This document shows, piece after piece, positions 13,274 to 61,040 of a stretch of 64,000 nucleotides of DNA; the stretch's first letter is position 1, and each line of letters opens with the position of its first letter. The position numbers and the translations under genes were made by a program. The notes below the pieces were generated by a model. The model was not told the origin of the DNA and did not search any database. It saw nothing but the letters and a program-made list of their open reading frames with translations. Source of the stretch: Podarcis cretensis (Eukaryota); contig OX638152.1 in NCBI GenBank assembly GCA_951804945.1, positions 86,366,001 through 86,430,000 of the forward strand. Direction: 5' to 3'.

Positions 13274-13703
13274 CCGTATTTTTCGTCCTATAGGGTGCAC
13301 CGGCCCATAGGATGCACCTCCTTTTTTGGGGAGGGGGGGAAATGAATAAAAAAAAATATTCCGGAGGGCTCCCCGTGCTTCGGGCGGCAGGTACCTCCCG
13401 CCGGGCGCGCGAGGCGCTTGCGGACACCCGCCCGAAGCACGGAGAGCCCTCCGGAGGGCGCCCCGTGCTTCGGGCTGCAGGCTGCTGCCCACAAGCCTTG
13501 TGAGCCTGCGGGAACTCCTGCAGGGCTTGCAAGGCTTGCGGATAGCTTCCTGAAGCCTGGAGAGCGAGAGGGGTCAGTGCGCACCAACCCCCTCTCGCTC
13601 TCCAGGCTTCAGCGAAAGCCTGCATTCGCCCCATAGGATGCACACACATTTCCCCTTCATTTTTGGAGGGGGAAAAGTGCGTCCTATGAGGCGAAAAATA
13701 CGG
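13274..13703. mobile_element. pogo/Tigger-like MITE with CCGTATTTTTCG TIRs (GC-rich interior)
   Basis: TA|CCGTATTTTTCG...CGAAAAATACGG|TA; internal direct and inverted repeats. Confidence 0.85.
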
Positions 13704-15440: not shown

Positions 15441-15656
15441 AACAGTTTCAGGTTAAGTACGGACCTCCGGAACGAATTAAGTACTTAACCTGAGGTACCA
15501 CTGTATTCCGTTTGGAACCTGAATGTCCAATGGGGCTTCTGATTGGCTGCAGGAGCTTCCTGCAGCCAATCAGAAGTTGTGTCTTGGGTTTCCAAACGTT
15601 TTGGAAGTCAAACAAACTTCCGGAACGGATTCCGTTTGACTTCCGAGGTACCACTG
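15441..15656 (+). mobile_element. Composite: right end of MITE family A (15441-15503) followed by right part of sister MITE family C (15506-15656)
   Basis: Two successive GAGGTACCACTG|TA right ends with no left TIR; internal hairpin CTTCTGATTGGCTGCAGGA...TCCTGCAGCCAATCAGAAG. Confidence 0.75.
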
Positions 15657-33040: not shown

Positions 33041-33335
33041 GCTCATATCACCATCACCTCTGCTCCCAATTCTGGTTTGTTCTGTTGAGGGAGGGGGCCC
33101 CACCCATTTGCCGCCTCACACCAAACCCCTTTATTCCCATCACCTCACCAGGAAAGCTAATTTGGCTATTTCCCGGAACCAGAAGGCTTGATTAGCTTTT
33201 AACGCTTGCTGGATGCAGGGATCAGTGGGTCTCTGCATACAGCCTGCTTCCCTCCACCCCAAACTCATAACTCTTAAGGCCATGATGCAGTCCAAGCAAA
33301 GCACTTTAAGTGATATGTCTAACTTGCTGGGAGTT

Positions 33336-33517
33336 AAAACAAAAAAAATTCCTTCCAGTAGCACCTTAAAGACCAACTAAGTTAGTTCTTGGTATGAGCT
33401 TTCGTGTGCATGCACACGAAAGCTCATACCAAGAACTAACTTAGTTGGTCTTTAAGGTGCTACTGGAAGGAATTTTTTTTGTTTTGACTATGGCAGACCA
33501 ACACGGCTACCTATCTG
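33336..33517 (+). mobile_element. Penelope-like element fragment (inverted pLTR end) containing a perfect 150-bp palindrome
   Basis: 12-bp TSD TTGCTGGGAGTT (33324-33335, 33518-33529); 33336-33485 is its own reverse complement; TAAGGTGCTACTGG and CAGACCAACACGGCTACC motifs resemble reptile Penelope termini. Confidence 0.8.
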
Positions 33518-34332
33518 TTGCTGGGAGTTGAAATCTTTCAAATTGAGATCAAATGTAAGCAGTGCTTCATTTTTACCAGATCGTGTGCTCCATAAAAATT
33601 CATTAGATGTTTGGAACGGCGCCATGCTTTTGCAGCACGCTTTTAAAGGTTTACTCACATGCGGTCTATATAAATCCTTACTTATCAAACCAATGGGAGG
33701 CAGGCACTTCAATAAAATTGGGTAAAAGGTGATCATTCTCAAAGACTGAAGTGCAAGCTGATTTCTCAATTCCCAGTGTGTTGCTATTCAGAATAAAAAA
33801 GCACACACACACACCCCGAAACAACCATTGACTGTTTTTCTAGGGCTAATCAATGAAGTGAACTTTTCCCAAACTGGACAGGAACAATGTCCGACATGTT
33901 TGGCATTTCACTGTCATGTTCTGTTGTGTTAGAAATTGTTTTGCTCTAATGTAGCTGTCAAGTGTTTACATGTTAAAACTGTATTCAGCTGCTTCAGAGA
34001 GTGCGGTTCTAAGTCAACACACTGCCAACTGTGAAAATTTAGTTGATCTGCCCAGCCAATGAGCTTGTGACTTTATTTTGCTTCCATGCATCCACAACAT
34101 AGCAAGCAAAGAGGTCCCTTGGAAATGAATATAGCTCATGCAACACAAAAGCTACAGGAAATGGCATGCTATATATTGCTGACCTGGATTTTGACTACAG
34201 ACTCTTTGAACCAAGAAGCGTAATTAAAAACACAAGTACATATGGCTGCAGAAGAGACCACAGTCCTTCAATCTTTGATAGACCCTTGTAAACTATTCGG
34301 CTAACTGCATACTTTGTATATATTTACATATA

Positions 34333-34686
34333 CAGTGGTGCCTCGCAAGACAAAATTAATTCGTTCCGCGAGTTTTTTCGTCTTGCGATTTTTTCGTCTT
34401 GCGAAGCACGGACTTTGGAAAAGCTTCAAAAATCACCAAAGTCTTCAAAAACCTCAAAAAAGGCTACCACACCGCGTGCTATGAGTTGCTCCTCGAAGTG
34501 AATGCACAGTTTTAAGAAAAAGGAAACAAACTTGCAAGACAAAGGAAACAAACTTGCAAGACGTTTCCGTCTTGCGAAGCAAGCCCATAGGGAAATCCGT
34601 CTTGCGAAGCAACTCAAAAAACGAAAAACTCTTTCGTTTTGCGAGTTTTTCGTCTTTCGAGGCATTCGTCTTGCGAGGTACCACTG
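34333..34686. mobile_element. Tc1/mariner MITE family E
   Basis: TA|CAGTGGTGCCTCGCAAGAC...GTCTTGCGAGGTACCACTG|TA; repeated CGTCTTGCGA motif. Confidence 0.85.
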
Positions 34687-35700
34687 TATTTCCAGGGTTA
34701 AAGGAAAGAACTACAAGCTATAACAGACATAGAGGACCTCCTCATAGTGTGAGTGGAATGGAAAAAAATGACTGTATACATGTACATGCACAATTGGGGA
34801 ACCCTTAATCTACCAGGTTACTGAAGTTTACAGAACCTACGTTTATGCTCAGTCTGTTTTCGCAGTCTGTCTTAACATGTGGGGTTGGGGATTGTTCCAA
34901 AAGGTGCAGACTTGCTCCTGTCTACTTGTTGATGGAACATATGGATGGGTACACGAGTCGGGGGAAAGGGCTTACATTACAGGAGCAGAAGATGTATCAA
35001 AATAATAATAACTGGGTTTCATTATCATTTTACTTCCTGGAATATTGCTTGCTTTTGGAATCCATGGCAATGAAAGAACTTTTTTTTTTTAAGGGAGATA
35101 TTTCCCCCTTTCATAACAAAGCAGATTCAAATTGTGAGAACAGTGGGGCATTTTGCTCCCCCCCCCCTGCTCTTGCTGTGAATATTTTTAGACTCCCAAA
35201 TGAAAAAGGGGAATTAAAGCAGAATACCAAAGGTTATGGTTCTCTTGGGGATATATATTTTCTTCAAGAAAGAAGCAACTTGAGATAGAGAGGAACTATA
35301 CTGTTAGGTAAGCTCAAATAATCCCTAAGAATTCTCAAGAGTAAAATAAGTGGTTTTTAAGCTTCTGTTTAATTTTGGCTGATCTTTGGCTTCAAGAAAG
35401 GAGCATAAACATTATAGCACCTCAGACACCTGACTCTTGTTCTATATTTTAAGAAGTGAGAAGAGAAAAAATTGAAAAGCTGGTTTTAATAAGATAAATT
35501 TGCATATATATTTTGGCTTTTCTCTGCTTTAGAAGTAAAGTAATGGAATAGTGTGAGGGGCAGTGCTTGATTCTCTCTTTCTCCAAAGATTTGAAAGCAA
35601 CTTCGATCCCACCCAAACTAGTACCCATGGAAAGTGTATTATAAGCCCCTTTCCCATCTCAAATTTGTCTTTTATTTTTGCAGAATTTATAGTCTACTTT

Positions 35701-47890: not shown

Positions 47891-48061
47891 CGGAACTTCA
47901 AAAGCTTCCTGTGCATCATCCAGCATCTGGACTTTGATAGAAATAAGTTTTCCTGTAGGGGTTGTGGGCATTTTTTGTCCATGTTCCAAAGTACTGATCC
48001 CGGCATTTTCCTGAACTCCTAACCGGGATCCTGCTGTTGTTCTCTGCTCCACTTCACCCAT
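47891..48061 (-). CDS. FARP1: First coding exon of FERM, ARH/RhoGEF and pleckstrin domain protein 1 (N-terminal 57 aa, start of FERM domain)
   Basis: Reverse strand reads ATG GGT GAA GTG...GAA GTT CCG|GTAAGA = MGEVEQRTTAGSRLGVQENAGISTLEHGQKMPTTPTGKLISIKVQMLDDAQEAFEVP. This matches the vertebrate FARP1 N-terminus as I recall it (human MGEIEQRPTPGSRLGAPENSGISTLERGQKPPPTPSGKLVSIKIQMLDDTQEAFEVP). 171 nt, phase-0 GT donor at 47890-47889, strong Kozak (AAACATGG), in-frame TAG upstream of the ATG. Confidence 0.95.
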
Positions 48062-57586: not shown

Positions 57587-57722
57587 CAGTGTTGACCAAA
57601 GTTGGGTCTCCAGCTGTTTTTGGACTACAACTCCCATCATCTCTTCCTTGTAGGACCAGGGGTCAGGGATGATGGGAGTTGTAGTCCAAAAACAGCTGGA
57701 GACCCAACTTTGGCCAACACTG
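57587..57722. mobile_element. Palindromic hAT MITE (136 bp)
   Basis: 55-bp arms with one mismatch; ATTTAC on both flanks. Confidence 0.88.
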
Positions 57723-60869: not shown

Positions 60870-61040
60870 AGAGAGGGAAAGCTGTGCAGCGCCCCTTCAG
60901 CAAAGCGGGAGGAGAAACGGAGCCCCTTCCATTTCTCCTCCCGCTTTGCTGGAGAGGCGCTGCACAGAGAGCAAGAGAATATTTTTTTCCTTGTTCTCCT
61001 CCTCTAAAACTAGGTGCGTCTTATGGGGCGAAAAATACGG
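60870..61040. mobile_element. Partial pogo/Tigger-like MITE (one end)
   Basis: CTAAAACTAGGTGCGTCTTATGGGGCGAAAAATACGG|TA. Confidence 0.65.

Follow-up and report, generated by a model that had tools for sequence, protein, structure and literature searches.

Insertions of endonuclease-bearing (EN+) Penelope-like elements have a published layout. They carry inverted truncated pLTRs, one-sided tails of 30–40 bp and target-site duplications (PMC3846280; PMC8557442, accessible text of both), and palindromes at the inverted junction have been interpreted as self-priming (PMC3846280). According to the accessible part of PMC8557442, EN+ elements are defined by a CCHH motif, and a CX2-5CxxC linker between the reverse transcriptase (RT) and the endonuclease (EN) is present in the Neptune and Nematis types and absent from Penelope and Poseidon. 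Metazoan elements contain minimal type I hammerhead ribozymes, and paired motifs on opposite strands have also been noted (PMC4209133, accessible text). For PAc, a Poseidon element of the green anole, both target strands were nicked and extended in vitro, two internal RT start sites flanked the tail, ribozyme mutants still inserted, and a dimer was predicted; the accessible text of this study (PMC11167929) holds no model of how inverted arms arise and are joined. For the question of how such elements generate their inverted ends and tails, a large young family offers a countable junction spectrum.

Here, one insertion of 182 nt was analyzed together with its family; it lies in a window of 64 kb, which denotes the whole stretch of DNA that was analyzed. 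The insertion shares with the published units the head-to-head arms, the tail on one arm, the target duplication, and the palindrome at the inverted junction (PMC3846280; legend of Fig. 2 in PMC8557442; accessible text). It differs from the units described there in that the whole insertion is made up of two copies of the final ~110 nt of the pLTR, without an ORF body, and in that the palindrome is stem II of the hammerhead; furthermore, the junctions were counted across a large young family. The layout is already known, and the junction statistics and the two-priming model described below are apparently unpublished. A literature search with subscription journals largely outside its coverage yielded no link between the junction and hammerhead stem II, no tabulation of arm ends, and no proposal of twin priming to a capped start, and the accessible text of a preprint (10.64898/2026.07.22.740005) contained nothing on this subject.

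The insertion and its parent element

All coordinates refer to the window, and arm ends are numbered with +1 at 33411. The insertion is bounded by two copies of a 12-bp target-site duplication, TTGCTGGGAGTT, at 33324–33335 and 33518–33529 (both forward). Between them, a palindrome at 33336–33485 has perfect arms of 75 bp and no loop and represents the longest perfect inverted repeat within the window. The inverted, tail-less arm (33336–33410, reverse strand) is a 3′ piece of the pLTR that extends from the base preceding the tail back to the center of stem II; it is likely a cDNA primed on the top strand. The forward arm (33411–33485, forward strand) is a pLTR 3′ piece identical to that of an intact element. 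Common to both arms, as a junction microhomology, is hammerhead stem II with loop II, a perfect 14-nt palindrome, GTGTGCATGCACAC (33404–33417, no strand assigned). Loop II (CATG) is a palindrome in its own right, so that the position of the junction is defined only to within these 14 nt. The forward arm is followed by the 32-nt Penelope 'tail' (33486–33517, forward strand), as defined in the accessible text of PMC11167929 and PMC8557442. The exact palindrome, the 32 nt and the 12-bp repeat had been described in an initial annotation, and all of them were re-derived from the sequence. The designation of the 32 nt as unique was wrong, however: this known tail has 4839 exact copies in the genome and carries the first nine codons of the ORF, with the ATG start codon at 33490–33492.

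Adjacent to stem II lies the 3′ half of a minimal hammerhead core (33418–33429, forward strand), i.e., GAAA, a palindromic stem III/NUH and the 3′ strand of stem I, assigned from the sequence by the motif definition of PMC4209133 (accessible text). It is mirrored at 33392–33403, and the predicted ribozyme cut would follow 33425. The CUGANGA box was absent from both strands of 33336–33517 upon inspection of the sequence. In sister copies it is found just upstream of stem II, and the genome contained 7954 matches to CTGANGA-A-stem II-GAAA-GCTCA. In these, an upstream GTAT pairs with a downstream ATAC to form stem I, so that CUGANGA, stem II, GAAA, NUH and stem I are present in order, and the predicted fold contains stems I and II (z −0.23). 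The sister-copy motif fits the minimal hammerhead of metazoan elements, including the extra base before stem II, the palindromic stem III and a 4-bp stem I, whereas the window copy retains the 3′ half alone on each strand (PMC4209133, accessible text). An Rfam scan detected no hammerhead family in the window region, nor in the intact pLTR. The proposal that the insertion carries a hammerhead 3′ half lacking its CUGANGA box was supported at the level of the motif, and the Rfam match suggested as a check did not materialize. The stub itself is predicted to be catalytically dead and non-autonomous.

Its Penelope-like origin, which had also been proposed, was verified with intact copies. Positions 33404–33518 were identical (115/115) to the pLTR/ORF border of the intact tandem copy L161, whose copies follow each other with a period of 3011 nt and form pLTRs, and the region from +1 to +107 was exact in 18 of 100 sampled copies. 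The parent ORFs in L161–L163 are open frames of 925 codons, with matches to RVT_1 (E=2.7e-12) and, at the C-terminus, to a GIY-YIG domain (E=3.3e-5), both over the cut-off. Two cysteines lie between GIY and YIG in the CCHH motif, VYAIKCQQCPSALYIG in the L162 protein; this EN+ signature is accompanied by the corresponding layout of tandem pLTRs, an inverted truncated pLTR, a one-sided tail and a target-site duplication. Upstream of GIY-YIG, the linker CNKPRCQLC (CX4CX2C) is of the kind found in Neptune (or Nematis) and not in Penelope or Poseidon. Judged by this linker, the parent belongs to the Neptune type of endonuclease-bearing Penelope-like elements and not to Poseidon. A PDB search with the 910-aa ORF yielded no relative. 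Several intact copies of 925–927 codons exist (L161, 1795–7580; L162; L163; L164), one of them in tandem, and therefore the family is probably still active.

The insertion is real and young. In each of the four public runs examined (three samples from one organism and one from another), one contig ran from 33323 directly to 33518; it lacked the insert and contained the 12-mer once. Because the empty-site contigs hold a single copy, the 12-bp repeat is a true target duplication, as had been claimed. None of the read and contig matches listed at the site represented the filled allele, which rests on the assembly. The absence from the contigs of four runs and the full identity to an intact element agree with the earlier designation as very young. 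Fifteen sister sites sharing the core of the window copy were examined, and 12 of them have their own, different duplication of 12–15 nt.

Two other identities of the hairpin were considered and rejected. A MITE or foldback DNA transposon was ruled out, as the outer ends are unequal, one of them carrying a tail, and differ from site to site, where each insertion is flanked by a duplication of its own. A microRNA precursor was ruled out as well, since all Rfam matches were far below the gathering score and reflected merely a long hairpin.

Arm ends and junctions across the family

For the analysis of arm ends, the first 100 tail-bearing copies in the first 21 Mb of one chromosome (the largest contig) were selected by an exact tail; the sample includes a small number of loci that are duplicates or neighbors of each other (L046/47, L063/64, L098/99, L116/117), and three junctions were corrected by hand. 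Seventy-seven of the 100 copies were two-armed in head-to-head orientation. A target duplication was detectable in 61 of the 77, with a length of 12–13 nt in 43 of these. The end of the short arm could be measured in 59 of the 77 copies (but not in the other 18); in 41 of these 59, the match reached to a distance of at most 5 nt from the tail start, and in the window copy the arm ends exactly there. The tail-less arm reached further in the 5′ direction than the tail arm in 45 of the 77 copies, equally far in 17, and less far in 15. An 8-bp inverted repeat (33444–33451 and 33495–33502), which in the RNA encloses the start site of the short arm, may position one RT start.

The two arms of a copy are not independent. 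They shared 15 variants, compared to a mean of 1.8 and a maximum of 6 in 5000 re-pairings of 60 loci. Furthermore, both arms had the same end in 15 of 69 simple junctions, whereas 3.2 were expected, and none of 20000 shuffles reached this value (8 complex loci were dropped); the shared ends included −1016, −39, and −32. Because variants are shared and ends coincide far above chance, the arms derive from one template or one source. The shared variants fit a single RNA molecule, and also a single source locus or later conversion between the arms. Two long symmetric insertions, L120 (−1016/−1016) and L116 (−39/−39), have the same end base in both arms and a spacer of 1 nt or a hairpin-like spacer of 8 nt.

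The positions of the arm ends were not uniform. Among 177 arm ends, 49 were located at −21 to −16, 28 within −8 to +8, and one at the ribozyme cut site. Genome-wide, 1974 matches started at −18, compared to 56 at +16, and 24 of the latter were point mutants, leaving 32 true cut-site ends. The base at −19 was G in 66 of 95 copies (the first 100 listed, with 5 point mutants dropped), compared to 10 of 32 for the starts at +16. A TATA box begins at −51 of the element. The main stop 16–21 nt upstream, as read from the DNA ends, is likely the capped start of the RNA and not the ribozyme cut site. Reverse transcriptases can copy the RNA cap, and the G preceding −18 may represent a copied cap. The alternative is a brief self-priming on stem I; G at −19 was followed by T at −20 in 44 of 66 cases, and self-priming on stem I predicted the next base in only 8 of these 44. 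Many junctions contain short templated duplications of the cDNA end. Some unusual structures were also found at L098/L099 (one insertion) and L064, namely a rare insertion in which each arm has a tail, and junction fillings of 79–114 nt copied from the ORF start, which suggest template jumps.

The frequency of the junction seen in the window copy was quantified separately. Its exact 24-nt core was present at 175 sites of the genome, and 1 of 15 core sites examined (L007) turned out to be a more complex junction. Head-to-head junctions with a gap of no more than 30 nt numbered 297, and the first 50 listed were counted by hand. The symmetric stem-II form made up 31 of them, 22 exact and 9 with one or two changes, and the remaining 19 were distributed over 11 lengths. 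Other symmetric joints were rarer, with 57 at TA at −17 and 6 at AGCT, although the search patterns differed in length. A TATATA palindrome yielded 0 sites, but this is a weak control, since the pattern includes a single flank variant and few arms extend beyond the RNA start. Stem II is a real hot spot, because it accounts for 31 of the 50 listed short junctions and other symmetric joints are rarer. Nevertheless, it is a minor junction of the family, found in 2 of 100 tail-bearing copies, i.e., in about 2% of the insertions, compared to an arm end at −21 to −16 in 33 of the 77 two-armed copies. The idea that stem II is the inversion point thus applies to an enriched class of junctions, and its role as the main break of the family had to be given up. 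No perfect palindrome in the unit of the element is longer than stem II (14 nt), and the computed energies were −18.9 kcal/mol for the duplex and −2.4 kcal/mol for the hairpin.

Two further types of junction were observed. At eight sites (G000 C10:728322 and 7 others), the junction runs via hammerhead stem I, with one arm ending at −18 and overlapping the other at +16. At G000 C2:122009552-122010658, one two-armed junction occurs three times at distances of ~523 nt, which represents a small tandem amplification.

Proposed joining of two target-primed cDNAs and alternative routes

In LINE-1 twin priming, a single RNA serves as template for cDNAs primed from both target ends, and the arms are joined by microhomology. 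On balance, we favor a related route for the young 182-nt insertion, in which two target-primed cDNAs of one template were joined at the self-complementary stem II. Both target strands would be nicked 12 nt apart, as deduced from the 12-bp duplication, and each nicked end would prime a cDNA at an internal site. With one cDNA starting where the tail ends (about +107 to +113) and the other where it begins (about +75), one arm would receive a tail and the other would not. Both cDNAs would be extended toward the 5′ end of the RNA, which likely carries a cap and lies at about −18, at a distance of 33 nt downstream from the TATA box, and therefore most insertions would be 'strong-stop'-like and contain the first ~130 nt of the transcript. 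Two 3′ ends of the same polarity could pair at self-complementary sequence alone, and stem II, 12 nt inside the end, would be the best site. Flap trimming would then remove CUGANGA from both arms, and the ribozyme would be passive, with cleavage playing no part. The short templated duplications at the junctions fit microhomology joining after run-off. In LINE-1, the two arms represent different parts of the RNA, whereas here a single stretch is copied into both, from two fixed starts 32–38 nt apart.

PAc offers a close parallel, with RT and a GIY-YIG domain at the C-terminus in one ORF, a hammerhead at the pLTR/ORF border, and two RT start sites that, by their description, match the two insertion ends flanking the tail here (PMC11167929, accessible text). 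The CX4CX2C linker of the present family and the location of its ATG in the tail, and not at stem II, distinguish it from PAc as far as that text describes it. The two-priming analogy would thus cross clades, as the biochemistry stems from a Poseidon element and the present family has a Neptune-type linker. A twin 'strong-stop' insertion could be the default of the whole family, with a dimer priming both strands at starts 32–38 nt apart on a capped transcript, run-off, and end-joining by the host; we put this forward tentatively, at a little under even chances. If it is true, the tail, the inverted pLTR, the fixed 12–13-bp duplication and the ribozyme-centered palindromes would all result from one reaction, and stem II would serve as an annealing pad.

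For the window copy alone, identical letters would be produced by annealing of two cDNAs, by a fold-back that subsequently meets the second primer, or by a later deletion between two copies of the 14-mer. Fold-back self-priming, in which the cDNA primed at the tail would fold back at the stem II hairpin and serve as its own template for the mirror arm, had been proposed for this locus, and Arkhipova et al. 2013 interpret such palindromes in this way (PMC3846280, accessible text). It matches the geometry and the perfect arm identity of the window copy and accounts for shared variants and symmetric junctions (15 of 69), and the cDNA end is predicted to form a stem II hairpin of −3.0 kcal/mol, which is weak, however, with 5 bp. 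The decisive observation concerns the 45 of 77 copies in which the tail-less arm reaches beyond the tail arm. Fold-back is impossible for them, because the tail arm never made the additional sequence, and from the other arm no tail could be obtained; since neither arm alone can template the other, it is not a general route. It also does not explain why the mirror arm ends where the tail begins, both in the window copy and in most sisters. Fold-back is therefore possible for the window copy, but we regard it as unlikely, and it survives only as a way to resolve the middle after two primings. The anatomy given in the initial annotation holds, whereas fold-back is not required for it and fails as a general rule.

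In a later collapse, both arms of the original insertion would have extended past stem II, with the 14-mer present twice as a direct repeat around a hairpin, and the sequence in between would have been lost by replication slippage. Slippage is classically associated with direct repeats on either side of a hairpin, and the required substrate is present in 39 of 75 other two-armed copies. The window copy has no mutations and is missing from the contigs of four other runs, which would have left little time for such a deletion, and the stem-II copies were no more diverged than others (0.44 differences per 40 nt, n=9, versus 0.49, n=61; p=0.99, with low power). In view of these results a collapse is quite improbable.

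A halt of the reverse transcriptase at stem II, caused by ribozyme cleavage or by the folded ribozyme, would set the inversion point directly. Some stalling or trimming at the hairpin would fit the 28 of 177 arms ending within −8 to +8. However, most arms pass stem II and halt at −21 to −16, few ends coincide with the cut site (32 versus about 1900 at −18), and ribozyme mutants insert normally (PMC11167929, accessible text), so that this explanation has very little probability. Cleavage as the cause of the breakpoint was rejected, with 1 of 177 arms at the cut site and insertion by the mutants (PMC11167929, accessible text). An assembly or sequencing artefact, i.e., a fold-back read, would agree with the lack of a spanning read for the filled allele among the listed matches, but it can practically be dismissed, because the symmetry ends at the edge of the element, the 12-bp duplication agrees with the single copy in the empty-site contigs, and the core is common to 175 sites, with different duplications at the 15 examined.

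The junction spectrum thus excludes fold-back of a single cDNA as the general route and points to the RNA start, over the ribozyme cut, as the stop. The junction pattern of the family makes the insertion mechanism of Penelope elements testable and yields sharp predictions for the existing in vitro system.

Host gene and neighboring repeats

The placement of the insertion in an intron of FARP1, as originally annotated, was borne out by tracing the gene with short motifs and PDB matches. The first coding exon is located at 47891–48061 (reverse strand), the next exon lies ~26 kb before the first base of the window, and further exons were found in the stretch preceding the window; because of these positions, the stub is inside a FARP1 intron of ~74 kb. 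The PDB match of the first exon was weak (E=0.05), and a later exon scored narrowly higher for FARP1 than for FARP2 (79.5 versus 76.8 bits). A splice-site exon finder missed the gene, and a genome search with the FA domain gave no match on this contig among those listed. The locus is one of thousands of dead stubs and is probably without any function. The family keeps seeding introns with perfect hairpins of 70 bp and longer, which are a possible source of dsRNA. The dsRNA and the cruciform-prone site suggested in the initial annotation would not be peculiar to this locus, as most copies of the family would share them.

Several other inverted repeats are present in the window. The second longest perfect one (57596–57713), with arms of 46 bp and a spacer of 26 nt, is MITE-like. 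A further MITE-like element, with terminal inverted repeats of 25 nt and internal repeats, is located at 34330–34689, 800 nt from the stub. Shorter perfect inverted repeats with arms of 19–24 bp were found at 13550–13612, 15536–15576, and 60898–60951.
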